Below, one piece after another: positions 7,383 through 25,746 of a DNA stretch of 64,000 nt; positions within the stretch are counted from its first letter, which is position 1, and every line of letters begins with the position of its first letter. The DNA is from Candidatus Poribacteria bacterium. GTDB taxonomy: Bacteria; Poribacteria; WGA-4E; UBA9662. The position numbers were made by a program, and so were the translations under genes. The DNA lies in contig JAYZAL010000064.1 of NCBI GenBank assembly GCA_036339735.1, forward strand, positions 32,001-96,000, written 5' to 3'. Under the pieces are notes generated by a model. The model had not been told where the DNA came from. It searched no databases and saw only the letters and a list, made by a program, of their open reading frames with translations.

Positions 7383-8258
7383 ATGGAAGTGCAACAAACA
7401 ATAAAAGCCACTCGATCTTGGAGTCAACGTCATCGATATCAAGGGAAGTCAGTTGGCTTTGTTCCAACCATGGGTGCCTTGCATCAAGGACATCTCAGTT
7501 TAGTTCGCCAAGCCCGAAAAGATAATGATTTTGTTGTAGTAAGCGTATTCGTTAACCCAATTCAATTTGCACCTAATGAAGATTTTGATAATTATCCCAG
7601 AAAATTTAGGCTAGACTTAGACTTACTCGAGAAAGAATGCGTTGATCTGGTTTTTGCACCTAGCAGTCAAGAAATGTACCCACAAGATGATAACCGTATG
7701 AACCAGACATGGTTGGACGTCGTTGGGCCAATTACTGAAGGACTATGCAGTACTAGTCGACCGACTTTTTTTCGTGGTGTAACAACTGTTGTGGCTAAAT
7801 TATTTAATATCGTTCAACCAAAACGTGCTTACTTTGGATGGAAAGATGCACAACAACTAGCAGCAATCCGACAAATGGTGAATGACTTGAACTTTGATCT
7901 AGAAGTAATCGGCTTGCCTATAGTACGAGAAGACGATGGTTTAGCTATGAGTTCACGAAACGTCTATTTAACAAAAGATGAACGCCAAGAGGCCAAAATG
8001 GTCTACCAATCCTTGGAACTAGCAAAATCCCAAATTCTACGAGGGGGGCAGTCTGTAAAAAAAATCACGGATGAGATGAAACTACTAGTGGAAGACTCGC
8101 CATTGATTCGAATTGACTATATTACAATTGTCTCTAGTCAAACATTCAGCCTAATCTCAGAACTTGAGCACGGACAAGATATCTTAATAGCAATAGCTGC
8201 TTATGTCGGAAACACCCGTTTAATTGATAATTTCCGACTAAAAGTTCCCCAGTTTTAA
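7383..8258 (+). CDS. panC: pantoate--beta-alanine ligase
   Basis: VPTMGALHQGH, SVFVNPIQF, FG.KDAQQ, GLAMSSRN, RLIDN. Confidence 0.97.
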   Translation: MEVQQTIKATRSWSQRHRYQGKSVGFVPTMGALHQGHLSLVRQARKDNDFVVVSVFVNPIQFAPNEDFDNYPRKFRLDLDLLEKECVDLVFAPSSQEMYPQDDNRMNQTWLDVVGPITEGLCSTSRPTFFRGVTTVVAKLFNIVQPKRAYFGWKDAQQLAAIRQMVNDLNFDLEVIGLPIVREDDGLAMSSRNVYLTKDERQEAKMVYQSLELAKSQILRGGQSVKKITDEMKLLVEDSPLIRIDYITIVSSQTFSLISELEHGQDILIAIAAYVGNTRLIDNFRLKVPQF

Positions 8259-9319
8259 TTCTTTGTTACTGAAATTGTGTCATCCACAAAGAATCCCTTA
8301 CTTGACTTAGGTGGAATGCTTAGTTCAACCAGGTTGTCGCTAACAGCAGACACCACTCCTGTTAATTCACGCATGACTCCCAATTTGATCATTTGTCCAG
8401 TTACTGGGTGAATAATTTCTTTGGGCGTTTTACTCAAAGTCAACTTGTTTCCACTCTCAACTTTATTAGGATTAATGCCCGCCATTTGTAGTATATCCCC
8501 TCTTATCGCAATGATCATGGCATTACCTAATAAACTTTTTTGTAGCTGTCCAACCAAGTTCTGGGGGGGGCGCTTAATTCTATCATATATTCCTACAATA
8601 TGCTGAGGCTTACTTTCTATCCCGGGTACGATAATAACTTCGCGGTCGATTTTATGTAATAGCTCAAAGGATGCAATCCCCTCTCCAGCATTTTTACCAA
8701 ATGCAACAGAAATTTCATTTCCATCGGCGTCTACTAAATTTATCTCCTGGTCTGGTTTAAATGGTACTTGTGGGCCGTTATCTAGGGATGCTGCTAGTTG
8801 ATTCGTTTCGGTTTCAGCCAGTCTTTCTTCTATGTCAGATCCTGCACCTTCAAATTTTCTTACTAAAATGGAGTGCCGTCCCAGTACTAGCAAACACTTG
8901 GCAGGTAATCGAACCAGTCGGATATTAGTACCAATATCGATCAGTGGCGGGCTTGTTTTGCTCCGGTCATCTGTTGTAACTTCGAAATCAGAGAGATAAA
9001 GAGTTGATCGGTTCTGATCTACATCGATAACTAACCCCATACCCAGAGGCGTTTTAATCGTTTGTGTCAGATTCGCATTAGCATCATACAAAATCTTTGG
9101 CCTATATATCTCTAATGTCATACCACGTCTAACTCCATCTAATCTACCCAAATTAACATTAACTCGCCGCGAGTTTATACTCAGAATTCGACCATCTTCG
9201 GGTGTAGATGAAATGGATCTTTTTTCTTCTTTTGCTTGGTGGTCATCCGATAGAGAACTGATGGTGATCATCATAACACCAATAGTGATGAGGCACCAAA
9301 GAACATAGTCTTTTTTCAT
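8255..9319 (-). CDS. exported hypothetical protein with FlgT C-terminal-like beta domains
   Basis: N-terminal hydrophobic signal/anchor. VNVNLGRLDGVRRGMTLEIYR and EIIHPVTGQMI resemble FlgT-C-type motifs. Last gene of the long minus-strand run. Confidence 0.5.
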   Translation of the reverse strand: MKKDYVLWCLITIGVMMITISSLSDDHQAKEEKRSISSTPEDGRILSINSRRVNVNLGRLDGVRRGMTLEIYRPKILYDANANLTQTIKTPLGMGLVIDVDQNRSTLYLSDFEVTTDDRSKTSPPLIDIGTNIRLVRLPAKCLLVLGRHSILVRKFEGAGSDIEERLAETETNQLAASLDNGPQVPFKPDQEINLVDADGNEISVAFGKNAGEGIASFELLHKIDREVIIVPGIESKPQHIVGIYDRIKRPPQNLVGQLQKSLLGNAMIIAIRGDILQMAGINPNKVESGNKLTLSKTPKEIIHPVTGQMIKLGVMRELTGVVSAVSDNLVELSIPPKSSKGFFVDDTISVTKN

Positions 9320-9325
9320 GATTTT

Positions 9326-10069
9326 TTACCAACGGAACCTAATTTCTCCAAAGATACCATTTCCAGTTGTTAGATAGGATGTCTGAACCACCGAATCAGT
9401 ATCTTGGTCTTGGATTAAAAATAGAACAGCGCTTGTAGTTAAACTCAAAACCGAAGCACCAAGTAACAATCCAGTTTGCCTATCGAGTTGTTGTGTTTTT
9501 GATTTGAACTCATCGGCTTTTGTTTTTACTAAAGCTTGTTTGAACATTTTATATGTACTATCTGCTCGATGGTTTGAGTAATATGCAGCAATGCTCAATG
9601 CTCCACCAATAGATAATGCCGTCCAAGCAAAGGGATTTGATTGGCGACGGTATGGCTGATCGTAATCAGAAGAACCAGCTAAATCTGGCAAATCTTGATT
9701 TAGAATACTAATACCATCTTTGGTCTGAACAACCTCTTGAACGGATACTAGGTCTGCAAAGCGTACCATTTTCCCAGTATCTGTCTCCGTGATTCTCGTT
9801 ATAGCACTATGTTCATAAGACTCAAGGACCTCTAGGCGAGCTACAGGAGATAGCTGATGTTCAATAGATTCGTATGCATAGCAGATATCACCTTCCTGCA
9901 AGTCATAATCCTTTCCCATATCAATATAGACAAAGCTTCGATCAACTAGGAGAACGTATCCTTGGTCCCAACCATCGAGAGCCATAGCAACATCAGCGAT
10001 CATACCAGCGAATAACAAGCAATAGAAGAAAAATCTTAACTTTAAACTCATTCTTAGAACTCTATTCAC
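9326..10069 (-). CDS. exported/membrane hypothetical protein: FlgT-C-like N domain plus C-terminal hydrophobic hairpin
   Basis: Signal peptide; VYIDMGKDYDLQEGD motif; two hydrophobic segments near the C-terminus; ends in aromatic GEIRFRW. Confidence 0.5.
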   Translation of the reverse strand: MNRVLRMSLKLRFFFYCLLFAGMIADVAMALDGWDQGYVLLVDRSFVYIDMGKDYDLQEGDICYAYESIEHQLSPVARLEVLESYEHSAITRITETDTGKMVRFADLVSVQEVVQTKDGISILNQDLPDLAGSSDYDQPYRRQSNPFAWTALSIGGALSIAAYYSNHRADSTYKMFKQALVKTKADEFKSKTQQLDRQTGLLLGASVLSLTTSAVLFLIQDQDTDSVVQTSYLTTGNGIFGEIRFRW

Positions 10070-10075
10070 AAAGAT

Positions 10076-13000
10076 CTAGTTTTCAATTGGCCTAACACAG
10101 CGAAAACCAATACCGGGGTACCCTGATTCAGGGGAAGCTTTTTCTCGGTTTGTGAGTGAAGTCATGAACCCATCTTCATGTAAACTTATTCCTCCGCGAA
10201 CAGCTTTCAATCCAGTATGGTCAACAGGCCCCGTCGGGTTTGAAGATATACCACTTTTAGAGTAATAGGTAGCGTCATACCAGTCAGCGACCCATTCCCA
10301 AGCATTTCCACACATATTATATATATTGTTCCGAGTTTTTCCATCTGGATGACGGTCAATTGGAGCCAAACCTCTCCCCGTTTGGATATTTACCAAGCTC
10401 GTAACTATGCCATTCCAACGATTTCCCCAAGCCCATCTAGGCCGGGTTTTAATACCTGAAAAATTACCCAACGCAGCCCGTTCCCACTCAGCTTCAGTCG
10501 GCAATCTTTTTCCAACCCATTCTGCATAATCATTCGCATCTTTCCAACTAACGTTCACAACAGGGAATTTGCCCATTCCTTTTGGGTATTTTCGGCCATT
10601 CCAGTGACTTGGTGGCATGCGATTAGTCGCATCCACAAAATCTTTGTACTCTGCATTTGTTACCTCATATTGATCAATATAATATGCTGACAAATTGACT
10701 AACCTCTCAGGTTTTTCATCGGATTCCCCATTTTCATTTCCCATCATGAAAGGAATTGTAGTGGCTGGAACATAGACCATACTTAAAGGAGCGTCAAGGT
10801 CAATTACCTTTGTGACGATAGCACTTTCATTCCCAGCTCGATCCTTAAATTTAACGAAAACTTTCTTTGGGCCTGGAGTTGATTCAACTAACCAATTAAG
10901 GGTTGAAGTGTAAGATTCCCATTCATTAAACTCTTGAGTGTTAGAGACTGACATTTGATAAACACCACTAGCGTCAGTAACGGCAAACTCTAGCTTCAAT
11001 TGCGGAGACTTCGTTTTTCCCTTTCCCCCATTAATTTCGAATTTATGAACAAACGGAGGTTGTTGATCAATCACGAGGCTACGATTAACAAAAGTTGTCT
11101 GACCGACCAAAACAGTGATCGGGGAAACCCTAATTTCATCAGTTCCCGATCGGTGAATAGAATAATTTCGATCACTTTCTAGATCCGTGATAGACCAATG
11201 GTCTCCAGAGGTAATTGTTTCGACTCTCAAAGAGTTAGATAACTTTATATTATTTTTACGTAGAGCAAGAATAAAAGGTTCCGTGAGATGTTGGTGAATT
11301 TCAAATTCACGTGCTATCTCGTCTACATCTATGTCAATTGTTACAGGAGCTTCCTCGACCATATATTTACCCGTATCAATCTTTAGTTGGTACTCTCCGG
11401 CAGGAATATCTCGGATAGTGGTTGGTGTTAGGTAAGGTTTTAGTTGAACTTCGGCACGTCCAACCGAAAATTTCTCTGAAGCTGCTGGTGAAAAAATTAA
11501 CGATCGCATCTGCCGTGGCTGGAGGCGAATATTAGCTTTCCCGACTTCAATTTGAACTTCGATAGGAGGCTCTATGTCGATTTCCGTAACCTGATCCGTA
11601 ACCTCGGCTTTTTTTACGGTAAGTTCCTTTCTTTCCGATATTTCACCATTTTCACCCAACTGCTCTAAATACAGAGTGTCTCCCGGAAATACAGCCGTAC
11701 CTTGTTCCACTACTAATACTTGACCACCTTTGTTGATCTCTTCTAATACCGGTATTTTTGGACCAACCCGTTGTTCTACGTTTTTAATTCCAATGATTTT
11801 ATGATCAGATCGAAACGCCACTAAACCATCAGCTGTCCGATTCTGAAGCCAAACTTTGTCGCCAATTTCAAAAACACGAATCGTTTTGGGCACCATATGT
11901 GTATCTCCAGGTTCCACCCCTCGAATAAGTGGGATAGGATCAGCTACGAGTTTTTCTAATGCCGTAGAGTTATCGGTGAACTGTGGTACTATTTTGATTA
12001 CTGCATTTGAAGGATCCGACAAGATTGTAATACTACCTCTACCACGCTTTAAGGTTAGAGGGGGAAATTTGGTAACTTCGCCAGATTGTATGAGTGCAAG
12101 CTTTTGTTCTGGTAAGTAAAACGATTTTGAAACTGTAATCTTACTCAATCGAAAAACTTGAGCCATATTCGAAAAGTTTCTTCTGAGACTATCCTTAAGT
12201 ATGAGTCGAGTTTGCCTCTCACCGCGACTACTAGATACTAACTGAGGCTCCAAGACCTCAGCGATCTCACTAATTTTAATACGAAATATCTTACACTTTC
12301 CCGTTGAGTAAGTATTTTTTACAGGATATTTCAATGTGATTTTGTTTATTCTATCCGCTACTGATTCAATTTCTGGTAAAGATTCTTCTCTCGTGACTCC
12401 TTCTTCGATGCTAATTACATCTCCAGCTCCAAACTCTGATGTTGAAGAGACAAATAACTCTACATCCCCAGGTTGTAGATCCTTCAATAGACTAACGGAG
12501 ACACCTGTGTTGTCAATTTCCTGAACCAATATATGACTTTCTTTAGGAAAATCAGCGCGCCACCCGATCTTTAGGCTGTGGTAAACCGATACCTTTCCGT
12601 CGCTCATTAAATAACTGCTATTTAGTGGATTTTTTAGTATGATTTTATTTCCTAGTTCAGTGACTGACTCAACTATAGGCAACGGCTTTTCAATGAATGA
12701 ATTGACTCCTATCTCTTGCTTAATCGTAACAACATCTCCAACTTCGAACCCTATGATTGACTCAACGTATATTTCGTTTTCTCCGGAACGGACATCTTTT
12801 ACTAAATGAGTCTTTACGGCTTTAGCATCTTCAACCAAATTGGCTGGTTCAACAACTGGCACGGCGATTACCTGGCCTTTATTAGGAGGTTGTATACGAA
12901 ATACACGAGCCGTTTTTGGGTCACTGACCTCGCTCCTTTGCCCAACACCAAAACTATCTGCTAAAGCAGGCTGGACAAAGAGAGTTGGCATCAAATTAAG

Positions 13001-13390
13001 TACTCCTATTCGAATTACAGTGTGGTCAGAGTAAATTTGCATATTGTCCATTTCGTTCCCACTTTGAAGGATACGTACACGGTCTCCCACGGAAAATCCT
13101 TCAGTAGTTCGAACGGAAACTCGATCATCACCTTTGTCTGAAGGTCGAATTAGCGGGACAGGATCACCTAACATCGGAACCTCGTCCAAAAGTTGACGAC
13201 TGCGTATTGGCCGAGGTTGTTGTTTCTGTGCTCGCTTCAAATTTTCATCAATTTGAATTTGTGCATCTGGAGGGTCTACCTCTATATAAAGATACCCATA
13301 ACCGCTTGCGCGAAGTAACGACACAGGAGATAATACGCAAAGACCAATAATAAAAATAGAAATTATATTTTTCAAGTTCATAACACCCAA
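10076..13390 (-). CDS. large secreted multidomain protein: PEGA-like domains, five beta-repeat units, Ig-like domain, C-terminal FGE-sulfatase (SUMF1)-fold domain
   Basis: Signal peptide; GYLYIEVDPPDAQIQID and GSITILSDPSNA (PEGA-like); F.MG...DEKP, YEVTN, PVVNVSW.DA, RLPTEAEWE.AA, M.GNAWEW, GFRC (FGE fold). Confidence 0.8.
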   Translation of the reverse strand: MGVMNLKNIISIFIIGLCVLSPVSLLRASGYGYLYIEVDPPDAQIQIDENLKRAQKQQPRPIRSRQLLDEVPMLGDPVPLIRPSDKGDDRVSVRTTEGFSVGDRVRILQSGNEMDNMQIYSDHTVIRIGVLNLMPTLFVQPALADSFGVGQRSEVSDPKTARVFRIQPPNKGQVIAVPVVEPANLVEDAKAVKTHLVKDVRSGENEIYVESIIGFEVGDVVTIKQEIGVNSFIEKPLPIVESVTELGNKIILKNPLNSSYLMSDGKVSVYHSLKIGWRADFPKESHILVQEIDNTGVSVSLLKDLQPGDVELFVSSTSEFGAGDVISIEEGVTREESLPEIESVADRINKITLKYPVKNTYSTGKCKIFRIKISEIAEVLEPQLVSSSRGERQTRLILKDSLRRNFSNMAQVFRLSKITVSKSFYLPEQKLALIQSGEVTKFPPLTLKRGRGSITILSDPSNAVIKIVPQFTDNSTALEKLVADPIPLIRGVEPGDTHMVPKTIRVFEIGDKVWLQNRTADGLVAFRSDHKIIGIKNVEQRVGPKIPVLEEINKGGQVLVVEQGTAVFPGDTLYLEQLGENGEISERKELTVKKAEVTDQVTEIDIEPPIEVQIEVGKANIRLQPRQMRSLIFSPAASEKFSVGRAEVQLKPYLTPTTIRDIPAGEYQLKIDTGKYMVEEAPVTIDIDVDEIAREFEIHQHLTEPFILALRKNNIKLSNSLRVETITSGDHWSITDLESDRNYSIHRSGTDEIRVSPITVLVGQTTFVNRSLVIDQQPPFVHKFEINGGKGKTKSPQLKLEFAVTDASGVYQMSVSNTQEFNEWESYTSTLNWLVESTPGPKKVFVKFKDRAGNESAIVTKVIDLDAPLSMVYVPATTIPFMMGNENGESDEKPERLVNLSAYYIDQYEVTNAEYKDFVDATNRMPPSHWNGRKYPKGMGKFPVVNVSWKDANDYAEWVGKRLPTEAEWERAALGNFSGIKTRPRWAWGNRWNGIVTSLVNIQTGRGLAPIDRHPDGKTRNNIYNMCGNAWEWVADWYDATYYSKSGISSNPTGPVDHTGLKAVRGGISLHEDGFMTSLTNREKASPESGYPGIGFRCVRPIEN

Positions 13391-13394
13391 CTAA

Positions 13395-13742
13395 CTAAGC
13401 ACTCCTACTTTCCCACTTCCGATCTATCGAATAGACAAAAGCCAAAACCTCAGCTACTATTTGATAAAACTCTGGAGGGACTTCAGTTCCAACTTCAAGT
13501 TTGGCCAAGGCCTCCACTACGTCTGGCTGTTCGTAAATCGGTACGTCATGTTGCCTTGCTAATTCAACTATCCGATTAGCAATTTCGCCATCACCACCCG
13601 CGAGTATTTTGGGCGCTGAGTCAAATTCAGGTTGATAACGCAGAGCAATAGCCTTCTGTTTTTTTCTTAGTAATATATCCTTACTATTTTCTATTATTTC
13701 AACATCGCTGAGATTTTTTCGTTCGCTATGCACTGACATCAA
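13395..13742 (-). CDS. stand-alone FlhB cytoplasmic-domain-like protein (EscU/YscU/HrcU family, YlqH/FlhX type)
   Basis: KAIALRY...APKILAGG.G.IA.RI..LA..H.VP, EVPPEFYQIVAEVLAFVY; no TM domain and no NPTH. Confidence 0.9.
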   Translation of the reverse strand: MMSVHSERKNLSDVEIIENSKDILLRKKQKAIALRYQPEFDSAPKILAGGDGEIANRIVELARQHDVPIYEQPDVVEALAKLEVGTEVPPEFYQIVAEVLAFVYSIDRKWESRSA

Positions 13743-15051
13743 TTCGTCCCATGTTTACTGATATTTGTGAAACGTCAGTAATAACCTCTACTCCAGTTCT
13801 CTTCGAATCAATAACTTGAAATGCGACATCATCCAAATTGTAACGGATTGACTGCATACGTTCAAGGAGGTCAACTTTCTCATCAATAATGAAACTATTA
13901 TACTGTTGTTTCTCTGACATTATTAGACAGTTCATCTGTCTCTTTTGAACACGCAAATCGAACTTTAAGCTGCCAAGATTTTCTGTTTCAATTGACATTT
14001 CCAAGTGCATATTTTCCGTATCCAGTTTATCTTGGTCGTCTAAGTTATACCCCAAAACTTCCGCTGATAAATCCTTCTTATTTACACTGTATGGAATCTG
14101 AAAATAAACTTGGCTTCGTCCCGTAATCAATGGGTTCATAGCCAATTCTAACGCATCAATCTGACACAATACCGAATCGATGGCTTTATGCACTCGACTC
14201 AAGGATTCATCGGAGTACGGCATTTCTAATACGAGTTGGGTCTTGAATTGAATCAAATTGGCTTTTAGGCTTTTTCTCTGCAGGAATGCCTCTGAGGCAT
14301 TTGACCTTTGACCAGCTAAAAACAATTTTCGTTCGTATGACAACCCCAACAGGTTCACAGATTGAGAAATTTCTTCAGCTAAATTGTTTGAATTAGGGGC
14401 AATTGAACGCGTTGCTTCCAGAATCTGTCGATACAATTCGCTCTTACTACCAAAAGAATTAATCGAATCTTTAATTGAAGCCGTCAGTTCACTTCGTAAT
14501 AACCTAAATCTCTGGTGTAATTTGTCTTGCCGATAATAAAGATTTTTTAAAGCTCGAAACAGATGAGATTTAGGCGGAAAGTTTAACAACCAGCTAGTAA
14601 AGAGAAAGTTTGTACTGTAGCTCGTTCCTGATAGCGAATCAGCTTTTTGAGCATACTGAGCGAAATCAATCACGATACAAGGATCAATTGGAGTTTTATT
14701 CTGATACAGAATTTGAGCAAAATCGAGATGTCGCTGATTAGAAGGTAAACCAGCATCGTTAAGTAGAGATGTAATCTCAGAGTCAAATTTAGAGGGCATC
14801 GTACTTGTAGGAATAAAACTCATTCGTACTCCTCCTTTCAACGATATGACTTTTGCCTCAACTTCTTGACCTCGTCTGAGCCTAGATTTTATTTCAGTGA
14901 CTAACTTCTGTCCCTTAAAATTGATTAGGAATTGATTATTACCCAATACACGAACAACAATACCCTTTAAGATTTCGCCAGATTTTAATCCGGATTTAAA
15001 TGATGAAATCGACGGGTCTGTGACACGACCTAAAATTGGAGTCAATTTCAT
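13726..15051 (-). CDS. FliK-like protein (YlqG-type)
   Basis: N-terminal small beta domain (GEILKGIVV...FLINFKG); C-terminal YFQIP...IETENLGSLKFDL resembling the FliK-C fold; overlaps the FlhB-C-like gene. Confidence 0.6.
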   Translation of the reverse strand: MKLTPILGRVTDPSISSFKSGLKSGEILKGIVVRVLGNNQFLINFKGQKLVTEIKSRLRRGQEVEAKVISLKGGVRMSFIPTSTMPSKFDSEITSLLNDAGLPSNQRHLDFAQILYQNKTPIDPCIVIDFAQYAQKADSLSGTSYSTNFLFTSWLLNFPPKSHLFRALKNLYYRQDKLHQRFRLLRSELTASIKDSINSFGSKSELYRQILEATRSIAPNSNNLAEEISQSVNLLGLSYERKLFLAGQRSNASEAFLQRKSLKANLIQFKTQLVLEMPYSDESLSRVHKAIDSVLCQIDALELAMNPLITGRSQVYFQIPYSVNKKDLSAEVLGYNLDDQDKLDTENMHLEMSIETENLGSLKFDLRVQKRQMNCLIMSEKQQYNSFIIDEKVDLLERMQSIRYNLDDVAFQVIDSKRTGVEVITDVSQISVNMGRIDVSA

Positions 15052-15573
15052 CTACCTAGCAAGCCTTTGTAGTTCTTTTGCTAGTGCATCGGGGGGCAAA
15101 TCAACATTTCGATTAACAATTTGTCGAATTTGATCATTGGATTTGTTGAAGTCTCCCGAATAAAAGTATGCTTGAGCCAAAATCAGATGCAGGTGCCTCT
15201 TATTGACTCTAGAGTTAAAAACTGCCTGATAGTCAGCATTTGCTTTTTCCAGTGCAACGTTCGCATGCTTAATTGCCTCGGGAAATTGATTTGTTGACAG
15301 ATATATGCTGGCCAAACCAGCATTCGCATCAACATTACCCTCATCTTCTTTGAGTACTGCAGTGAATATACCCATGGCATCATCAACTTTACCTTCGGTT
15401 ATTTTCTTCCCTGCTTTTTTCAAGTCGGCAGTTTTATCAACAACAACAACTTCTTCTTTTACTAAGTTGTCATAGTTCCTATCGTTACAACCAAAGATAT
15501 ACAAGCAAAAAATAGTAACAAATAAACAACTCTTTATAAGCTTATTTAAAGCAAAATGCCGTACACGAAACAC
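15052..15573 (-). CDS. TPR-repeat lipoprotein
   Basis: Lipobox IFG-C after a hydrophobic stretch; TPR-like helices ANAGLASIYL...AIKHA and LILAQAYFYSGDF. Confidence 0.7.
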   Translation of the reverse strand: MFRVRHFALNKLIKSCLFVTIFCLYIFGCNDRNYDNLVKEEVVVVDKTADLKKAGKKITEGKVDDAMGIFTAVLKEDEGNVDANAGLASIYLSTNQFPEAIKHANVALEKANADYQAVFNSRVNKRHLHLILAQAYFYSGDFNKSNDQIRQIVNRNVDLPPDALAKELQRLAR

Positions 15574-15581
15574 GATTTCTC

Positions 15582-17351
15582 CTACCTTAAAGTAAAAGTA
15601 CTCATTGAAGGTGAAATATCCCGACCTAGATTATCTCTACCAATTACAGTGGCAACGACTTTAACCCCATCTTTTGGTAAACTATCGAGTTGGTAACCTA
15701 CAGTCCAAACACTCTGTGTCTGATCGATTCTTTTCATCATCAATGTTCGAGGCGTTAAATCAGGCGATTCTGGGAAAGTCAAACCAACAGTGAGGTCTGC
15801 AACATTATCCAAGATCGATACAATTTTAAACTCGTAGCGCAGAATTGGATTACGAATTAATATAACGGGAAACGTTTTTTCTGTATCAGTAGGAAGATCA
15901 AAAACAGATATTGTTATAGCTGTCTCTTCCACTTTCTTGTTTTCAAATTTAGCAATTACTTTGACTTTTTCAGAAGCCCCAACCCAGTCCCTTTGAGGTC
16001 TCAATGTCAAAATTCTATTCTTAATAATAACCGACACATGTTCAGAAGAGATAGCTTCCCACACAATATCATTAAAAACTTCCCTAGGTTCTATGTCTAA
16101 ATAACGGTTCAGATCGATATGGTGTTCTTCATTCTTAATCAATGACACCGTATTTGGAAGAGTTAAGTCAAGTTTTACAAAAGGAAGTGGTTGAACTGAA
16201 ACTTCTAACTCGCCACGGTCAAAATTACCATCAGGATCTGTAACAATGACAAACATTTTAAACTTTTTTGTATTGGCTACTGGATTCAATGACCGAAATG
16301 TCAGACGTGGTGGGTTATCAATAATACCTTTCGACTTGTCTAAACGATTTGCGCTGACTCCACCGATGACAAGTGCAGTTGGCATCCCATCAATAGACCA
16401 GCTTAATTCGGCGTTCTTATGATCCATATCTTTGACAAAGTTGTCTAGTAGCAAAATCTCCTCTGAACCAGCACGAAAACTTAGCTCAGGAAAACGAATC
16501 AAAACAGGAATCCCCTTATTATCAAGCCATAACGTTGCGGTGTCGATAGCGAGCGAATCACCAATCTTCAAAGAAACCCGCAAGTCAACTTTGACGACTT
16601 CGCCTTTTGATTTGGGCAAAAGGTCTCCCACGATAAGCTGGTTGGCTACATTCAATTCAACTTTCTTAGGTCTTCCTTTATCATCTTCTGCATTCAGTAC
16701 CCAATTAAGTTTTGGTCTTCCTTCTGTTCCTGAAATTATCACAAATTTATCTAATGGAACATTCTTGCCTGGATTTTCGGAAACAAATCTCTGAAGGTCA
16801 TATCGATCAATTTTGACTAACGTGTTCTTAACCTCAATATTAGCATCAACTAAATCTTTAAATGATCTCAGGCGAGGCTTTCCATCCTTAAGTTGTGTGA
16901 ATAGAGTATATTTCCCTTTGTTCCAGTGTACTTTTGGGTCTCGGTTGAATAGGATACGTGTTTTTCCACTTCCACGACCAACAAACTGAACTTTTGCAAC
17001 AACACCACGTCCTTTTGGGTAAGGAGCAGCATTCGAAATGACAGCAAACCCGACTTCTGTTGTGGATACAATCTTATTCAGGACCACAGTCCCTGTGTAA
17101 AATGGCCCTTGAACAAAAGGCGTCTCTTGGTTTACCAACCGTAACTTGTTAGGCTCGTATGTTAAATATACTTCGACACCAGCACTTGGAGTATCGCCTA
17201 CATCAATAAAAATCTCGAGATCTATTAAATCTCCTTGTTGAACTGTGATATCACTTTTTAGACTATCAGTACTACGAAGCCGAATCTCTGCTCCACTGGC
17301 TGCAGTCTTAAACAATAGAACTAAAAAAATATAGGAGAGTAGTTTATTCAC
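15582..17351 (-). CDS. secreted protein with N-terminal cohesin-like domain and cadherin/Ig-like repeats
   Basis: Signal peptide; VQQGDLIDLEIFID...GVEVYLTYEPNKLRL...G.GVVAKVQF..G.GKTRILF (cohesin pattern); LDNFVKDMD...LSWS and VTDPDG (cadherin-like). Confidence 0.65.
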   Translation of the reverse strand: MNKLLSYIFLVLLFKTAASGAEIRLRSTDSLKSDITVQQGDLIDLEIFIDVGDTPSAGVEVYLTYEPNKLRLVNQETPFVQGPFYTGTVVLNKIVSTTEVGFAVISNAAPYPKGRGVVAKVQFVGRGSGKTRILFNRDPKVHWNKGKYTLFTQLKDGKPRLRSFKDLVDANIEVKNTLVKIDRYDLQRFVSENPGKNVPLDKFVIISGTEGRPKLNWVLNAEDDKGRPKKVELNVANQLIVGDLLPKSKGEVVKVDLRVSLKIGDSLAIDTATLWLDNKGIPVLIRFPELSFRAGSEEILLLDNFVKDMDHKNAELSWSIDGMPTALVIGGVSANRLDKSKGIIDNPPRLTFRSLNPVANTKKFKMFVIVTDPDGNFDRGELEVSVQPLPFVKLDLTLPNTVSLIKNEEHHIDLNRYLDIEPREVFNDIVWEAISSEHVSVIIKNRILTLRPQRDWVGASEKVKVIAKFENKKVEETAITISVFDLPTDTEKTFPVILIRNPILRYEFKIVSILDNVADLTVGLTFPESPDLTPRTLMMKRIDQTQSVWTVGYQLDSLPKDGVKVVATVIGRDNLGRDISPSMSTFTLR

Positions 17352-18517
17352 TGCGCTTCTAATGCTCGTTTGATTTGCAGTACTTTCTCAATGTATCTCT
17401 GCGTTTCTGAAGGTAAACTGTTCCTTTTTTTTACCCGAGTAGGTCCGGCATTATAAGCCGCTAAAGCTAACGAGACCTGACCAAATGAATCTATTTGCTG
17501 TTTCAAGTACCTAGCACCACCTGATATATTTTGTCGTGGGTCGAACACATTTGTAACACCAAGATCCTTCGCCGTACCCGCCATAAGTTGGGTCAATCCA
17601 CTTGCTTTTTTAGGAGAAACGGCACGACTATTTCCACCAGACTCAACATAAACAAGTGCAATCAACAATTCAGGGTCTAAGTCATTATCCCTGGCCGCCG
17701 ATCGAATCAGGTTCTTGTACCGATTTACTCGAGCAAGTATTTTGTCGTTTAATTCTTGCTTCCTTTTCGATTTTGCGTCAACTGAAGTGAGTTTTTTTTG
17801 CTGACTTTTTTTAGGTTTTGTGTGGACGAAGCCTTTTTTTGCTAATGACAACTTCTCAGTTGAGGAAGGCGGGGAGATAAAGGGTTTCGCTCCCGAACTT
17901 TTCACCAAATCGATTCTATTATCTGCTTGAGACGATCTAGATTCAATTGATGATTTGACTAGCTCTGCCTGGGATTGGTTATGAGGTTTCAATAAACTTG
18001 ATACAACCGTTGAATTTTGGCTCTGGAACTTATCAAATTCCTTGGCTTTTTGATGAGATTGGTGATGGACAAGTGCCAACCTTTGACGATTTCGACGAAC
18101 TATTGCAGCCTTTGTGTAAAGAGCAGATGCTGTGGACTCTTTCCTTACATCCGAACGACTAGATTTCGAAGCCAAAGGAGTAGGGGGTGAAGATTCTATT
18201 CTTACCTGTGGAATTTTTTGATCCCAGGACTTTGTATTAATAAGAGATTTACCATACAAAGATTCATCACTCTTAATTTTCCAATGAGAAATGACTTTGA
18301 CATCCTTAATGAAGGTCACCCCTCCGTTGTATGCAACATAAGTAGATGAATCAACCGCAGTATAATCTATCCATCGATTTCCCCGATAATCTGTCACAAG
18401 CAACTTATAAATTGTTTTCACTTTTGCCTCAGAATTAGAAACAAAACAGGTAAAGGCAAGAAAGCCTAGAACGGCTAGATATAGAAGCCGATGGAAATTC
18501 AAAATTAGTATGCCCAT
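17348..18517 (-). CDS. lytic transglycosylase (C-terminal SLT domain) with N-terminal signal and low-complexity linker
   Basis: ALVYVESGGN.RAVSPK.A.GL.QLM, FDPRQNI.GG..YL, ALAAYNAGP, ETQ.YI. Confidence 0.92.
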   Translation of the reverse strand: MGILILNFHRLLYLAVLGFLAFTCFVSNSEAKVKTIYKLLVTDYRGNRWIDYTAVDSSTYVAYNGGVTFIKDVKVISHWKIKSDESLYGKSLINTKSWDQKIPQVRIESSPPTPLASKSSRSDVRKESTASALYTKAAIVRRNRQRLALVHHQSHQKAKEFDKFQSQNSTVVSSLLKPHNQSQAELVKSSIESRSSQADNRIDLVKSSGAKPFISPPSSTEKLSLAKKGFVHTKPKKSQQKKLTSVDAKSKRKQELNDKILARVNRYKNLIRSAARDNDLDPELLIALVYVESGGNSRAVSPKKASGLTQLMAGTAKDLGVTNVFDPRQNISGGARYLKQQIDSFGQVSLALAAYNAGPTRVKKRNSLPSETQRYIEKVLQIKRALEAQ

Positions 18518-18572
18518 TAAGGCTAAATTTATAGATTCTTACGAATCGGTTTATGTGGATTGAATGGGTCTT

Positions 18573-21500
18573 CTATTTCAATATTACCATCTTTTTTAAA
18601 GATGTTTGGTGATCCGTTTGTAGCTCATAGAAGTAGACTCCACTCGCAACTTGTTCACCATTTGCGTTACGGCCATCCCAATATGCTGCAAATCCTTGGC
18701 TAGAATAATCTCCTGCAGGCATTATTCCCAAGTTCAATTCCTTAACTAAAATACCTGTCGCATCGTAAATCCGAATCGATACATGCGATTGCTGACTGAG
18801 CTTATAGGGTAACCATGTCTCAGGGTTGAACGGGTTTGGATAGTTCTGGGCTAGTTCAGTTTTCTGCGGCTTCTTTAAAGTCTCAATAGTTTGAACCCAT
18901 CCCCCTTCAGGGTGAGAGTAAATGTTACGGCCTCCATCCACCACTACTAAACGTTCTAGTTTAATGTCGCCATAACCTCCAGCTTTGCTGACAAAAGAGA
19001 AACTTGCCAAATCGGAAGTCCCAGAAGCATTACCATTCCTTCCAGCAATCATATTAGCTACCAAAATCCTGTTAAGACCATTTGATTCCTCAAAAGTACG
19101 ACTAATAAAGAATGTCTCGGCATTAGATGAATTACGTTCCAGAATTTGGCCTGCCTCTACCTTTTCGTCCATTAAATGCCACAGATCAGGATCGTAAGTC
19201 AGTTCGAACGCATAACCTTTTATACTGTCAACCTTAGCCATGACTTGAAGACTTATTGTTTCTCCCTCTTGAACAACCTGTGGCAAATTTGGCTTGATCA
19301 ATTGGAAGGTTTGCTCTACGATCGCAGGTGAAGCTGCTGGCGGCGGACCACCATCGCCAGTAGGTGGAACACCCAATCCCCCAAAGTCACTAACAATGAT
19401 GTCGTAGTCCACTAGGTTGATGTTACCATCGTCGTTCAAATCGGCATTATCATTGAATTGCTCATGCCCCTCTTGAGTCCCCCAAGCTTGCATAAACAAG
19501 TTCATGTCCCCTATGTTTATCCTGTTATCACCATCAATATCTCCACCAATTAAGTATTGATCCTGATCTTTCGAGTAAATGTCGATACCACGCAAATTAT
19601 CACCAGGAATCACTACTAAAGTGGAAGTATTAGCTTTGGGTTGGTATTGCCCACGCAAATAGGAATTTGCCTTGGCAACTAGCTCCCAAGTACCTCTTGG
19701 TACCCCTTGAATAGTATATGACCCGTCAGCTTTAGTTGTTACTTGAATCCCAGGTTTAGCTTCATCTTCATCATTTGCAATACTATCAATTTCTAAATCT
19801 TCAGTTGTACCTGGTTTACGCAAAGAGAATGTAACTTCAGCTGAATGATCTCGACGTCCTTCCAATTTAACTTTTCCAAAAATAGCTGCATGAGGCAAAA
19901 TCTGAATAGCTAGAGCCGGCGTATTGGCTATCGGTGAGACATTCTCCCGAGTATCTGTTAAAGGATCAATTATAGCAATTGAAGTCCCTCGATTACTAGC
20001 AGCCTCATCGAAATCAAATGAAACTGTAGTATTGATCGGGCGTGTACCCTCGTGTTCTTTCACCTTAAAAGTTAAGGTTGTCAATGTTCGATAGATACCA
20101 GTCCTAACAGCTTTAGAATTATTTTTAATAACTATACTGTAATCTAACTGAAACCCACTAATACCGTTGGCCATACTATCCTCAATAGTATCATCGTGGG
20201 TGTCGTTTTCTAGAACCTCTTGCTGGTTTTCTTTAGCATCATCTAGATCAAAAATTAACGATGATTTGTCGACCCCATCATCTGAAGAGGACAGTTGGCG
20301 AAATGGTAAAGCCGAATCCTGAATTTCCAGGTACCGGTCATCAAAAGTCATGTAAATGCTTGCCCCTTTGATCTTAACATCCGGACTTCTTAGTTGAACA
20401 CGGACCTGAAACTCTTCGCCTGGTCCTGCCGCAATAGATGCTGGGCGTAAGCGGATATTCACCTTACGAATGGTTACACTACCGGCAGCTTTACTATATG
20501 CTTCATTACCACTACCATCCGTCGCTTTCGCATAAATAAAATAAGAACCGTTTAAACCAAATTCATTCGCAGATTCGAAAGATTCAATATCCCAGGAGTA
20601 AGACCCTAAGCCGGCTGAAGTCTGGTAATTAGTGGTCAAAACACCCGACTGGACTGTATTATCACTCACTTCACCTATGATTATCCTAGCGTCATCCTCC
20701 AATGTATGATAATACAAGTTAATTTTTATATCATTGTTATCGATATCTTCTGTATGCCATGAAACAGTATATTCATCTATCGCACGAGAGCCCTGAAGAA
20801 TCGGTGAAATTAGCTTAATCGTTGGCGGATATTTGACAATTAGCCGCCCCCTACTGCGCAACGCCTTTTCTTTAATTTCTGATTCTTCTTTAGCTTTCGT
20901 TGGGTCTTTATCGCTGATTATGGCATAGATATAGTAGCCAGAAAGGCTTTCTTTCACATTTTGATTACGAAAGTTCCACTTGTACTGGCCTAAATCCTCA
21001 TCTTCATCTTCACTCAAGTTGCCGGCAATAAACTCAGTGTTTTCCCGTAATGTTACCAAATCTAAGGTCGAGAGATTCTTGTCGCTATAATAAAGACTGA
21101 TCCTAGCGTCCCCTAGATTTTTTTTGTCAGTCCACTGAACTATAAAAGAGCCATCTGTAATATCAACATCGTTCTGAGGTGTTAGATTGCTCAGGAAAAC
21201 ATCATGCCTCACCTCAACTTGCCCCGGAGCTCGAACCAGTTCAGAACTTATGTCAGTGTCTTCTATAATGCCGTATATCGTATAGAGTCCTTCCGGAATA
21301 TTACGTGTTTCCCAGATAATATTGGTTTCTTCTGCTCCAACAGTCAATTCCACTGGTATGGAATCCGAAGGATCGATACTTGGTATGGCTGGAACTAAAA
21401 CGCTTGTGTCACTCTCTGTTGCAACACGGGCTTTCAAGCCAGCAATGTCCTCAGGCCCGAAATCGTCTTTTCCAGAATAAAACAACGTAATTTTTGCCTT

Positions 21501-22703
21501 CGGGTTAGGTCCGCTAGCACTGAACCCAACTTGACCTTGATCATCAAAAATCACGGCAGGTACTTTGAATGGCGAGAGTATTTTTAGTACAGGCTTTTCT
21601 GGCAATTTAGTAATAACAGGACCGGACGAACTGAAGTCTTCTGCAGGACCTGCAGGAACAGATTTACTGAAAGTAAAACTCGTTCCCTGCTGAAGAATAA
21701 CGCCGATCGTATCACCTTCCCTAGCCTTACCTTCGGTCTTTGTTAAAGCTGCCAAAAGAAAAGTGTTTTGCGTTGAGCCTTCAGGTTCCGCCCCAAGTAA
21801 TGGTTGATCAAGTTCAAATGACAGGCTTATAAGATCTGTTTTAATTTCCGCAATTGGTGCACCATCGTTTTCATCTAGGACACGCAAAGGTTCAATATCT
21901 TTGTAAAGATAAAGTGTCTCAACCGACTCACGGACGAAAGGTGGAGCCAATTGAAGAGTCATCGACATCATATTTTGGGCTATATCCGACCTGACTTCAA
22001 TTGCAGATAAAGCAACTCTCTTATTAAAGGAAACTGGCTTCCCATCATTGAGAGCCGTTACTATGATTGATTCGATCCCCTTAACCATTGGCCCATCAAT
22101 CCGTCTCTGATCTTCCATCGCGGAAACCCTATCGGCCTCACGAAAGAAAAAAGCATGACTGCTAAGATAAAGAATTACCTGATTACCTCTCGTGGTTTTC
22201 CCGGGATTAAGAACGACGACTAAAAGGAAATTAGTGGTTGTTTCTTCCCCAAGTTTACCTACAGGTAACCCAAGCCCTGCTTTTTGCAAGTTTAGCGGGG
22301 CTCGGCTATTGATATCAAGAACCTCTGAGGTAATCCACTCAGCGCTATCTGGCTTTCCATCTTTGTTGACGTCTTCATACAGTTCGATCTTGGCAATTGA
22401 AGTGTCCTCCACCCCTTTATTCTGTTCTTCCAATTTAAGATTACTTACTTTCAGGAAAAACCATTCATCTTGCCCTCCATCATCTGTAATAGCTATATTT
22501 GCAACTACAGCTTGCAAGTCACCAGGATCAACCAATTCATCCGAAGTAACTGGTTGGACATTGATGTTAGTGACAAGGCCCCAAGACAAATAGGGCGAAC
22601 AGAAAACACCCACAATACAAAGTATTAAACCAGCGTAAATAGAACTATATGTTCGGTAGAGTAAAGAACAGCTAATAGACACTGCTCGGTCAAACTTCCT
22701 CAT
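18573..22703 (-). CDS. 1376-aa secreted scaffold-like protein: Ig-like repeats, cohesin, X/carboxypeptidase-regulatory-like, dockerin, cohesin, T9SS-like/FlgD-Ig C-terminal domain
   Basis: Duplicated Ca-loop GDIDGDNRINIGD / ADLNDDGNINLVD; two cohesin-pattern segments; C-terminal LAQNYPNPFNPETW...WDGRN..GE.VASGVYFY...KMVILK. Confidence 0.8.
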   Translation of the reverse strand: MRKFDRAVSISCSLLYRTYSSIYAGLILCIVGVFCSPYLSWGLVTNINVQPVTSDELVDPGDLQAVVANIAITDDGGQDEWFFLKVSNLKLEEQNKGVEDTSIAKIELYEDVNKDGKPDSAEWITSEVLDINSRAPLNLQKAGLGLPVGKLGEETTTNFLLVVVLNPGKTTRGNQVILYLSSHAFFFREADRVSAMEDQRRIDGPMVKGIESIIVTALNDGKPVSFNKRVALSAIEVRSDIAQNMMSMTLQLAPPFVRESVETLYLYKDIEPLRVLDENDGAPIAEIKTDLISLSFELDQPLLGAEPEGSTQNTFLLAALTKTEGKAREGDTIGVILQQGTSFTFSKSVPAGPAEDFSSSGPVITKLPEKPVLKILSPFKVPAVIFDDQGQVGFSASGPNPKAKITLFYSGKDDFGPEDIAGLKARVATESDTSVLVPAIPSIDPSDSIPVELTVGAEETNIIWETRNIPEGLYTIYGIIEDTDISSELVRAPGQVEVRHDVFLSNLTPQNDVDITDGSFIVQWTDKKNLGDARISLYYSDKNLSTLDLVTLRENTEFIAGNLSEDEDEDLGQYKWNFRNQNVKESLSGYYIYAIISDKDPTKAKEESEIKEKALRSRGRLIVKYPPTIKLISPILQGSRAIDEYTVSWHTEDIDNNDIKINLYYHTLEDDARIIIGEVSDNTVQSGVLTTNYQTSAGLGSYSWDIESFESANEFGLNGSYFIYAKATDGSGNEAYSKAAGSVTIRKVNIRLRPASIAAGPGEEFQVRVQLRSPDVKIKGASIYMTFDDRYLEIQDSALPFRQLSSSDDGVDKSSLIFDLDDAKENQQEVLENDTHDDTIEDSMANGISGFQLDYSIVIKNNSKAVRTGIYRTLTTLTFKVKEHEGTRPINTTVSFDFDEAASNRGTSIAIIDPLTDTRENVSPIANTPALAIQILPHAAIFGKVKLEGRRDHSAEVTFSLRKPGTTEDLEIDSIANDEDEAKPGIQVTTKADGSYTIQGVPRGTWELVAKANSYLRGQYQPKANTSTLVVIPGDNLRGIDIYSKDQDQYLIGGDIDGDNRINIGDMNLFMQAWGTQEGHEQFNDNADLNDDGNINLVDYDIIVSDFGGLGVPPTGDGGPPPAASPAIVEQTFQLIKPNLPQVVQEGETISLQVMAKVDSIKGYAFELTYDPDLWHLMDEKVEAGQILERNSSNAETFFISRTFEESNGLNRILVANMIAGRNGNASGTSDLASFSFVSKAGGYGDIKLERLVVVDGGRNIYSHPEGGWVQTIETLKKPQKTELAQNYPNPFNPETWLPYKLSQQSHVSIRIYDATGILVKELNLGIMPAGDYSSQGFAAYWDGRNANGEQVASGVYFYELQTDHQTSLKKMVILK

Positions 22704-22744
22704 ATCTTCTCTTCTTCCTTGTTATGAAGTTAGACGAACTAAAA

Positions 22745-24184
22745 CTACATAAAATTAAATAGACTTGGTGACATAGTACGCGCACCGGTTTGAAGCATAG
22801 CTGTCAACATGTTAAGTTGTATCTGATACTCAACAACTGCGTCTGAATAATCAACTTGCTCTACAGTTTCAAGAAACTGTTCGAGCGCTAAATTTTTATC
22901 CGACAATCGATTACGTAATGTGTCAGCTCGGTTAAGTTTTCCCCCAACCTGAGTTTGTAAAATTGTTATATGCTCAATAGAACTCTCCATAGCATTCGAA
23001 AGTTCTTCAATAGCACCTTTCCCTTGATTTCTAACAGCGGCTTGCAAGTCGACTAATTGATCAAAAACTCTTTGAAAAGCTACATCCCCGGGCATCCCGA
23101 CTTCGATAAAAGAGCTTTTTCCAACTCGCTCTAAATGAACCCCTTCATCTCCTTGATAACTAATACCGACTATATCCCCGATACCAACACTGGTATGCTT
23201 TATAACCCTTGCATCTAATCCTGCATCGTAAGTGTTCTGCAGAGGCGTTTTCAATAAGACAACAGCTTCATTCTTTGTTAGATCCGTCTGGACAGTCTCA
23301 ACCAAAGCTATTTCCGAAACCCCTCCCATACCTTGCACAACAATTTGATCTCCTGCTTCCAAAGCTCCTTGAACTCTGTCCAATGGAAGGACCACCGCTC
23401 TTCGTTCGGCACTTTTTAACAATGGAACAGCCACTGTGGTATCTTCGCTTTCTATATCGGCTTCCTCACCATCCACTTTAGGTTTTGTCAAAACAGCTGG
23501 TTGATTCGATTCAACTGAGTAATTATTTGATAAATCTGAATTGAATTGTATCACAACGCTGTCGCCTGACGACTGAACCGACGAGACCGTAACATATTCT
23601 TGATTTTCACCCTGTTTCAAAACTAATTCATCCCCTACGGAGAACGAATCGGCATATTCTAAACCAATCTCTACTTTATCATGAGAGACGTTTCTAGCAA
23701 ATTTAAATTCTCTTGTGGCAACTGTAGACTGGCTCCGCTCAGCCGTAAAAGCTGTACCTTCCGTTCTATTACCAGCAAACAGAGGTTTACCCTCAAAAGT
23801 GGTATTCACAGTTTCCAATGTCGATTCTACTAACTGCTTTAATTCTTCTGCATAAAACTTATAATCCGAAGGATGATTAGTATCGGACAGGGCCATCTGC
23901 GCTAAATCACGAGCTCTACCTAAAATACTCTGTACATCCTGATACACCATATTTTCTACGCTAAGCTGAGCTTCTGTGTGATTCACGTTTGAAACGAATT
24001 GCTCGTTCTGGGAAATATGTCCCCTAATATCCAGAATCTTGTTGGCTAAAGCTGGGTCATCTGATGGTTTCTGAATTCTTAAACCGGTGGAGACCCGCAT
24101 TTGAGCCTTCTCTAGGTTTTCCAACGCAGTATTAATCTTTCTTTTTAGATTGTCAGCTTGTCCTGCACTTGTAACACGAGCCAT
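22745..24184 (-). CDS. flgL: flagellar hook-associated protein 3 with large central insertion
   Basis: Flagellin-like N-terminus STGLRIQKPSDDP, LFAG; C-terminus VDYSDAVVE...SPSLFNFM; follows flgK. Confidence 0.9.
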   Translation of the reverse strand: MARVTSAGQADNLKRKINTALENLEKAQMRVSTGLRIQKPSDDPALANKILDIRGHISQNEQFVSNVNHTEAQLSVENMVYQDVQSILGRARDLAQMALSDTNHPSDYKFYAEELKQLVESTLETVNTTFEGKPLFAGNRTEGTAFTAERSQSTVATREFKFARNVSHDKVEIGLEYADSFSVGDELVLKQGENQEYVTVSSVQSSGDSVVIQFNSDLSNNYSVESNQPAVLTKPKVDGEEADIESEDTTVAVPLLKSAERRAVVLPLDRVQGALEAGDQIVVQGMGGVSEIALVETVQTDLTKNEAVVLLKTPLQNTYDAGLDARVIKHTSVGIGDIVGISYQGDEGVHLERVGKSSFIEVGMPGDVAFQRVFDQLVDLQAAVRNQGKGAIEELSNAMESSIEHITILQTQVGGKLNRADTLRNRLSDKNLALEQFLETVEQVDYSDAVVEYQIQLNMLTAMLQTGARTMSPSLFNFM

Positions 24185-25728: not shown

Positions 25729-25746
25729 TCTTAATCCTTAAACTAT

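Follow-up and report, generated by a model that had tools for sequence, protein, structure and literature searches.

The stretch of DNA analysed here (the window; 64,000 nt, positions 32,001–96,000 of the forward strand of contig JAYZAL010000064.1, assembly GCA_036339735.1, Candidatus Poribacteria) contains a flagellar operon that continues beyond flgL into nine further genes, the first of which encodes a giant protein with a dockerin, cohesin-like domains and a type IX secretion system (T9SS) sorting domain. According to the list of open reading frames (ORFs) and the gap table, the minus strand between positions 8255 and 35467 is occupied by an unbroken run of 22 co-oriented ORFs, from flgG to the gene named p354; the original prediction had counted 23 ORFs with no gap above 56 bp, and its gap limit stands while its count does not. 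Intergenic distances across the run range from -17 to 56 bp, including overlaps or abutments of -4, 0 and -17 bp. The first 13 genes, flgG to flgL, were identified by Pfam and NCBIfam; upstream of flgL they follow the order flgG, flgA, flgH, flgI, a fused gene for the FlgJ rod-binding domain and FliK, flgD, the ORF labelled “Flagellar_put”, the gene for a FlgC-like rod protein, flgE, that for a second rod paralogue, flgN and flgK. Nine more genes lie downstream of flgL and are hereafter called the block: p1376, a lytic transglycosylase gene (SLT; p389), p589, a tetratricopeptide repeat (TPR) gene (p173), p441, p115, p1104, p247 and p354 (Table 1). Housekeeping genes flank the run, with panC, gatC and uvrD at one end and a gene for an M28 peptidase at the other; the gap upstream of flgG carries a TTGACA-N17-TGnGATAAT-like motif that may represent a sigma-70-like promoter.

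Table 1. Features of the flagellar operon and of the nine genes that follow flgL; positions are those of the window.
Feature	Position	Strand	Remarks
Gap upstream of flgG with candidate promoter	35468..35728	-	261 bp; sole gap >56 bp
flgG	34655-35467	-	First gene of the run; Pfam above cut-off
Distal flagellar genes, system 2	24217..35467	-	All above Pfam cut-offs
Variant flgI, system 2	31903-32922	-	PF02119 positions 1-265 and 304-343 only; ~266-303 missing
FlgJ rod-binding/FliK fusion, 617 aa	30039-31892	-	Rod-binding domain 94-142; FliK hook-length C-terminal domain 481-559
flgL (479 aa)	22745..24184	-	TIGR02550 178 bits
p1376 (1376 aa, signal peptide)	18573..22703	-	Directly after flgL, 41-bp gap
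p389, lytic transglycosylase, signal peptide	17348..18517	-	SLT domain 270-371, PF01464 95 bits
p589 (589 aa, signal peptide)	15582..17351	-	4-bp overlap with SLT gene
p173, TPR protein, lipobox-like IFGC motif	15052..15573	-	TPR_19 45.9 bits; lipobox read from sequence
p441, FliK-like, no signal peptide	13726..15051	-	PF02120 (Flg_hook) 21.1 bits, below cut-off 29.8
p115, stand-alone FlhB C-terminal-domain protein (FlhX/YlqH-like), no NPTH	13395..13742	-	PF01312 74.8 bits
p1104, signal peptide	10076..13390	-	~850 aa of repeated small beta domains plus C-terminal FGE-sulfatase domain (GldK-like), PF03781 144.5 bits
p247, signal peptide, small beta-barrel domain, two C-terminal hydrophobic helices	9326..10069	-	No Pfam match
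p354	8255..9319	-	FlgT_C-like barrel 43-110; insert ~118-245; six-stranded barrel 252-354

The genome carries two complete flagellar gene sets, and the operon of the window is the distal half of the second. FlgI, FlhA and FliF are each encoded twice; contigs C68 and C77 carry the system-1 paralogues of flgC, flgD, flgE, flgF/G, flgH, flgI and flgK, and a full core operon on contig C79 (flgB, fliE, fliF-J, motAB, fliL-R, flhB, flhA) is without precisely those distal genes that are present in the window and is complementary to them. The single flagellum implied by the original prediction is thereby replaced by a second flagellar system (system 2), recognizable by its variant FlgI. Directly upstream of flgB on C79 lie genes for a 1223-aa TPR protein (G000:C79:112264-115935; L015 4264-7935) and a 101-aa ORF, which are possibly further system-specific accessory genes. 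Dual flagellar systems are familiar from the polar and lateral flagella of Vibrio and Aeromonas and from fla1/fla2 of Cereibacter; the present case resembles them in having two complete, divergent core and axial sets in one genome, with the second set patchily distributed among relatives, but it belongs to another phylum, and we know of no other dual system with nine extra genes in the late operon of its second set. Poribacteria as such are divided into sponge-associated and free-living lineages, as described in PMC8546597; free-living Poribacteria can carry two flagellar systems.

The block is inherited together with system 2. Among 176 genomes of the phylum, including the window’s own genome G000, FlgI was found in 22 and its variant form in eight (G000, G001, G002, G003, G005, G006, G046 and G057). 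Full-length p589 orthologues occur in exactly these eight genomes, as does the unique N-terminal region of p1376, which is present once in each of them and adjoins flgL wherever examined; none of these three markers occurs in the other 168 genomes, 14 with canonical FlgI only and 154 without FlgI. The comparison extends to close relatives: G045, which is 95% complete and a congener of the carrier G046, has no variant FlgI, no full-length p589 and no p1376 N-terminus, and contains one FlhA versus two in G046, G057 and G003. The synteny analysis that had been proposed as a check thus ties the block to one particular flagellar gene set (8/8 carriers vs 0/168 others), and orthologues of p589 or of the p1376 N-terminus in genomes without system 2, which would have spoken against such a tie, were not found among the 176.

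Gene order is conserved over considerable divergence. It is the same as in the window in G001, G003 and G005 (genera g1 and g2), where genus g2 shows an additional 194-aa cyclic-nucleotide-binding (cNMP) ORF between the p1104 and p247 orthologues (G003 and G005; L009 7528-8112 and L011 7539-8123) that is absent from the window. The order flgK-flgL-p1376-(SLT)-p589-TPR persists in families f5 and f9 (G046, G057), and thus in three families altogether, at 31% identity for p1376 and 24% for p589; G046 retains the SLT gene, and in G057 the p589 and TPR genes are followed by those for a PEGA+FGE protein, a GNAT protein and two barrel proteins, and by a flagellin gene. Along its length, the N-terminal region of p1376 retains 30–31% identity. 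Metagenome loci recovered by a p589-alignment search show the order of the window as far as their contigs reach (15/15), with flgK-flgL-p1376 in all five that extend upstream; outside the phylum, no block genes were found in 15 loci anchored on FlgK relatives (24–30% identity), several of them on short contigs. The junction after flgL recurs in independent assemblies and is therefore neither an assembly chimera, as the original prediction had considered, nor a chance neighbourhood. Another possibility is that the block was captured beside flgL in an ancestor of system 2 and has since travelled with it as a transferable or losable island, with no functional tie. The patchy occurrence of system 2, present in G046 and missing in its congener G045, is what would be expected of an island gained and lost as a whole, and the carriers fall into three lineages; against this, order and orientation persist at 24–31% identity and with overlapping stop and start codons, a divergence at which unrelated passengers should have been shuffled or lost, the module stands between flgL and a flagellin gene in G057, and both the calcium-loop residues of the dockerin, which are invariant, and the N-terminal region of p1376, at 30–31% identity, have been maintained. 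Mere conserved adjacency appears improbable on this evidence.

The region is also represented in RNA libraries. Twenty sequencing runs from 13 studies contain the stretch, 18 of them recorded as RNA, from marine metatranscriptomes; four RNA runs from four studies were examined, three with 30/30 bins covered and the fourth with 28/30. Contigs assembled from these libraries bridge the flgL-p1376 junction in three of the four runs (X1 record 7, X2 record 14, X4 record 23), which agrees with the read-through anticipated across this junction, to the extent that contigs and not strand-specific reads are concerned; further contigs bridge SLT/p589/p1376, p441/TPR/p589 and p1104/p115/p441, and another (X1 record 1; window 8047-10196) covers p247 and p354 and extends into panC, which is convergent. 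A terminator after flgL, the other possibility raised beforehand, is not apparent, as no terminator-like site lies in the 41-bp gap between flgL and p1376; across the region such sites are not enriched (10 found vs 13.9 expected in shuffles). A scan for sigma-54 motifs found nothing. A sigma-28-like motif (TAAA, 15 nt, GCCGATAT) is located inside flgL at position 23480 (minus strand), ~780 bp ahead of the start of p1376; by a rough estimate ~0.1 such sites would arise by chance in the scanned region, and a chance origin is about as probable as a genuine one.

The protein encoded directly after flgL, p1376, combines a signal peptide, a unique N-terminal region of ~700 aa (residues ~40–745), a first cohesin-like domain (748–912), an X-module (~970–1040), a dockerin (1054–1103), a second cohesin-like domain (1141–1250) and a T9SS type A sorting domain (1288–1376). 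The dockerin exceeds its Pfam cut-off (PF00404, 27.2 bits vs 22.9), and a profile of six p1376 orthologues matches the solved X-module-dockerin dyads 2b59_B, 3kcp_A and 5k39_B with E-values of 1e-9 to 1e-11; the two calcium loops of DxDxDG/N type (residues 1055–1066 and 1088–1099) are invariant in six orthologues that are 33–34% identical overall. The sorting domain likewise scores above both applicable cut-offs (TIGR04183, 30.1 bits vs 23; PF18962, 31.2 vs 27), and ~40 proteins of the genome carry a similar tail; a search for the corresponding secretion machinery returned a SprA-like ORF on contig C3 and PorU-like ORFs on C38 and C16, as long matches below the curated cut-offs. The N-terminal region is single-copy in its genome, and an Atlas search with it returned nothing informative (best score 0.81).

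The cohesin assignment is less direct. In the window’s own p1376 and p589, Pfam finds no Cohesin match even at E<=10, and PDB sequence searches with p1376, p589 and the p1376-orthologue profile returned no cohesin entries. The precomputed annotation of p1376 orthologues includes PF00963 (Cohesin) in 7 of 11, and a second-round, iterated hidden Markov model (HMM) of the p589 N-terminal domain matches p1376 at both presumed cohesin positions (748–912, 36.6 bits; 1141–1250, 29.1 bits), with the same result in orthologues. In p589, the layout consists of an N-terminal cohesin-like domain (~18–178) followed by immunoglobulin-like (Ig-like) domains of Big_9 type; a profile of p589 orthologues finds proteins with a Pfam Cohesin domain at the matched place (P0111 at 62 bits, P0138 and P0151 more weakly). 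The AlphaFold2 (AF2) model of p589, with a predicted local distance difference test (pLDDT) score of 68, is a string of all-beta domains, for which Foldseek retrieved multi-Ig proteins and a few cohesin entries (2w1n, 4fl4_I, 3kcp_A); a PDB sequence search with p589 gave nothing usable. Since Pfam hits in orthologues, transitive profile matches, iterated HMM matches and Foldseek entries agree, the cohesin label is reasonable for these domains, although its support is indirect. The domain labels originally proposed for the genes after flgL are confirmed overall, with the proviso that cohesin, FliK-like, PEGA and FlgT_C fall below Pfam detection or cut-off in the window, and that p247 has no Pfam match.

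Judged by its domains, the p1376/p589 pair resembles the type II/III X-module-dockerin anchoring of cellulosomes in its X-dockerin dyad, in the retention of both calcium loops, and in the presence of cohesin-like domains in the same and in the neighbouring protein. Unlike cellulosomes, the block contains no glycoside hydrolase or carbohydrate-binding subunit; Pfam and NCBIfam detected no family of either kind in the nine block proteins, so that a cellulosome in the strict sense is not indicated, and in this diderm host a T9SS-type sorting signal takes the place of SLH or sortase anchoring. The genome as a whole contains 13 dockerin-bearing ORFs and 14 cohesin matches, 11 of them above cut-off. 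A p589-like giant on contig C1 of the same genome was considered as the head of a paralogous module and rejected; it is flanked by metabolic genes and is separate from a pair of genes on the same contig (L047 14223-17528) for a 617-aa CsgG+FlgT_C protein and a 478-aa LPP20-family lipoprotein, which also stands among metabolic genes and recalls proteins of the flagellar H ring or basal disk.

Several block genes, namely the SLT gene and the pair p441/p115, are of flagellar type and are interleaved with the cohesin genes; the original prediction had placed flagellar-type genes on both sides of the latter. Among NCBIfam models, the transglycosylase p389 is closest to the BB0259 flagellar lytic transglycosylase, but its 79.5 bits fall short of the cut-off of 234, so that it does not belong to that exact family. 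It is encoded with flagellar genes while the FlgJ-like protein of the operon consists of Rod-binding and Flg_hook domains only, with no glycosidase domain; p389 is probably, by domain content, the peptidoglycan-cutting partner of this rod-binding-only FlgJ. SLT genes also adjoin flgJ/flgK in two Zixibacteria loci, which fits an ordinary flagellar helper wherever FlgJ is without its glycosidase half. The fused FlgJ-FliK form recurs with lengths of 598–650 aa in G003, G005 and G057, and the operon thus has its FliK domain in addition to the separate FliK-like p441. The p441 gene overlaps that of p115 by 17 bp; the match of p115 comprises PF01312 profile positions 262–335 of 335 and includes no transmembrane part, and its TIGR00789 score is 103.2 bits against a cut-off of 117.35. 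Full-length flhB genes are found on contigs C79 and C24. In having the FlhB C-terminal domain only and no NPTH motif, p115 is similar to FlhX of Helicobacter and to YlqH-type proteins; it differs from TIGR00789 members in its score below the cut-off, its overlap with a FliK-like gene and its position inside an accessory module.

Among the remaining block proteins, the TPR protein p173 is kept in all system-2 loci. The PEGA assignment of p1104 is weak in the window (16.6 bits vs a cut-off of 20.8), and its G057 orthologue shows PEGA at 71.5 bits together with FGE. Compared with the GldK model TIGR03525, p1104 reaches 74 bits against a cut-off of 350, with the FGE domain alone aligning, and is therefore not GldK or PorK; tblastn with p1104 gave 34 matches in the genome, all of those listed falling in the FGE region, so that the FGE-sulfatase domain appears to be strongly expanded in this genome. 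The small barrel protein p247 has an Atlas neighbour cluster in which 47% of the members carry FlgT_C (score 0.89), which can serve as a lead only. In p354, FlgT_C scores 22.7 bits against a cut-off of 27, and paralogues of the p354 type reach 49.3 and 49.7 bits; FlgT_N and FlgT_M were not detected in the block, and p247 shows no FlgT_C either. PDB sequence searches gave no match for the p354 and p247 profiles and nothing usable for a FlgT_C-positive paralogue.

Two of these proteins show sequence relationships to axial proteins of the flagellum. Residues 130–231 of p354 align with residues 208–300 of FlgE from the same operon at 35% identity (BLASTP, E 4e-13) and also match FlgE of G001 and G003; the insert is present in genus g1 and absent in genus g2. 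By this alignment the p354 insert is homologous to the outer domain of FlgE, and the block has exchanged a domain with the hook protein in one genus. The FlgL proteins of family f1 contain an insert of ~190 aa that is missing from the FlgL of G046 and G057 (301–303 aa); it aligns with p1104 residues 196–364 at 27% identity (E 7e-4), and p1104 orthologues are the best non-FlgL matches of the insert profile. As these profile scores are low (1.6–7.1 bits per domain), the link between FlgL and p1104 is a hint.

The components of the block have relatives away from flagellar genes, and searches with p247 and p354 profiles recovered paralogues even where a genome has no system 2. On a 15-kb contig of G045 that contains no flagellar genes, the gene for a 1166-aa protein with Cohesin and Big_9 domains and a weak C-terminal match to the T9SS tail of p1376 is followed by those for a TPR protein, a barrel protein of p247 type and a protein with FlgT_C at 49 bits; G048 has a similar set. 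In G047, a genome that is 73% complete and in which FlgI was not found, TPR, p247-type, FlgT_C-like and FGE proteins are grouped with a FliM-domain protein (144 bits), and contig C26 of the window’s own genome carries, beside dnaJ, genes for a giant of 1622 aa that has the sorting domain, for an MFS transporter, and for one protein each of TPR and p247 type. FlgT_C-like matches, mostly below the cut-off, also occur in non-flagellated relatives. In trees, the barrel proteins fall into two groups, of p247 and of p354 type, both of which include linked and unlinked members, and in the trees of TPR and barrel proteins the copies linked to system 2 are not resolved as one clade. Modules of TPR and barrel proteins (with or without FGE) and giants with a C-terminal sorting domain, some of them of cohesin/Big_9 make-up, thus exist away from flagella, so that the module type is not intrinsically flagellar. 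The FliM-domain protein of G047 (G047:C216; L046 4455-5336) has 293 aa, matches PF02154 at 144 bits and has no FliN-like C-terminus; it is encoded inside the TPR/barrel/FGE module.

These unlinked modules weigh against a purely flagellar role of the block, and so do several properties of its own genes. The dockerin-cohesin-sorting-domain tail of p1376 represents a generic surface cassette, which at least four more giant proteins of the genome also carry; the cohesin-like domains escape Pfam in the window, as described above; and p589 carries no T9SS sorting domain, so that it may remain periplasmic, apart from a surface-exposed dockerin. The AF2 model of p354 (pLDDT 50) is confident for residues 260–354 only, and the barrel contained in this part is generic in VIA-align comparisons; its match to 8z5n_5 of an entry named “LPHT ring” (Z 9.2, root-mean-square deviation 3.6, 94 residues, 20% identity) is tied with many unrelated six-stranded barrels. 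The eight carriers represent three lineages and not eight independent events. The contigs from RNA libraries show neither strand nor a single transcript, and the one that runs into panC implies overlapping 3' ends or DNA in the library, so that carry-over of DNA is possible.

Many of the same observations could be accommodated if the block encoded an adhesin that is co-regulated under the late flagellar promoter and serves a swim-then-attach behaviour on marine particles, with no contact between its products and the flagellum. Proteins displayed on the surface typically have a T9SS sorting domain, Ig-like repeats and cohesin/dockerin modules; at least four more giants bear the tail of p1376, free-standing paralogous modules are present in G045, G047, G048 and on contig C26, and the organism is present in marine metatranscriptomes. 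Giant T9SS adhesins with cargo-specific helper genes have a precedent in sprCDBF of Flavobacterium johnsoniae. The block resembles this cluster in combining a T9SS-sorted giant with small conserved helper genes, in an FGE-fold protein that recalls GldK/PorK in its domain, and in a TPR lipoprotein; it differs in that its helpers are not PorP/SprF-like and that the cluster is embedded in a flagellar operon. Other features are harder to reconcile with an adhesin that merely shares a promoter: the SLT gene and the FliK-like/FlhB-C-like pair are placed inside the module and not beside it, the barrel protein p354 carries a copy of the hook’s outer domain, a FliM-like gene lies inside the paralogous module of G047, and orthologues without system 2 are lacking among the 176 genomes. 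A co-regulated adhesin is possible but, on balance, rather unlikely.

The reading that best accommodates both sets of observations is that the block is a copy, dedicated to flagellum 2, of a recurrent poribacterial envelope or surface-display module. Its dedication to system 2 is supported by its inheritance only with this system, its position inside the late operon, its interleaving with the SLT gene and the FliK-like/FlhB-C-like pair, and the domain exchange with the hook protein in one genus. The surface complex coupled to the flagellum that the original prediction had envisaged is consequently retained in part: its coupling to flagellar genes is supported by the 8/8 versus 0/168 distribution, the conserved order and the bridging RNA contigs, but the module is not of a purely flagellar type. 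That the nine genes form a functional module physically associated with the second flagellum is slightly favoured by the available evidence.

As to how such a module might operate, we infer the localisation, binding and structural role of its products from their domains and gene context. The nine genes would be transcribed together with the late, hook-associated genes. Based on its signal peptide and sorting domain, p1376 would be exported by Sec and then by type IX secretion, and be held on the outer surface; its calcium-type X-dockerin could engage the cohesin of p589 or its own two cohesin-like domains, and thereby build a multimeric scaffold. By analogy with accessory proteins that build rings, an anchoring layer in the periplasm and outer membrane may consist of the PEGA/FGE (GldK-like) protein, the TPR lipoprotein and both small barrel proteins of FlgT_C-like type, of which one is presumably membrane-anchored. 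The transglycosylase would open the peptidoglycan for the rod, a step that would be needed because the FlgJ of this system has a rod-binding domain only, and the FliK-like/FlhB-C-like pair may act as an additional export-switch module. These steps would most likely result in a collar or coat situated where flagellum 2 leaves the cell, or close to that point; alternatively, an adhesive scaffold might be deployed together with this flagellum. In its full form, in which a T9SS-exported giant self-assembles through cohesin-dockerin contacts and, with a cohesin/Ig partner and barrel, TPR and FGE anchors, builds a collar, coat or adhesive sleeve on the second flagellum, the proposal is tentative and, as a whole, unlikely to hold in every part.

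Lineage-specific additions to the flagellum are well known, among them the H and T rings of Vibrio (FlgT, FlgO, FlgP, MotX, MotY), the basal disk and PflA/PflB of Campylobacter, and the spirochaete collar (FlbB, FlcA-C). The block is similar to these ring and scaffold sets in that extra periplasmic or outer-membrane proteins, including TPR proteins, FlgT_C-type barrels and lipoproteins, are encoded with flagellar genes in one lineage; unlike the Vibrio-type sets, it contains no FlgO/FlgP or MotX/MotY. To our knowledge, all described flagellar rings and scaffolds are built from periplasmic or outer-membrane proteins exported by Sec, and none includes a T9SS-sorted giant or cohesin/dockerin modules. 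Lineage-specific flagellar scaffolds, second flagella, stand-alone homologues of the FlhB C-terminal domain and flagellar SLTs are thus already known; what is new is the accessory content, that is, T9SS cargo with an X-dockerin and cohesins, PEGA/FGE and barrel helpers, and the fact that this set has long been retained in the late operon of a second flagellum by an uncultured marine phylum. The statement of the original prediction that this arrangement had not been described agrees with full-text literature searches, which covered few subscription journals and found no description of a flagellar operon with a cohesin-dockerin block.

If the products are located on the flagellum, flagella, type IX secretion and cellulosome-type assembly, fields without prior contact, would be linked, and a concrete target for cryo-electron tomography and biochemistry would be available; a collar, coat or sleeve of this composition would be the first case in which a flagellar organelle employs cohesin-dockerin modules and T9SS cargo as structural parts. 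If the block instead encodes a co-regulated adhesin, it would show that swimming and attachment are hard-wired together in an uncultured marine phylum of global distribution.

Apart from the flagellar operon, the window contains three genes for PhyH-family dioxygenases (1508-2338, 39983-40870 and 41373-42158) and a sulfatase gene (46317-47804).

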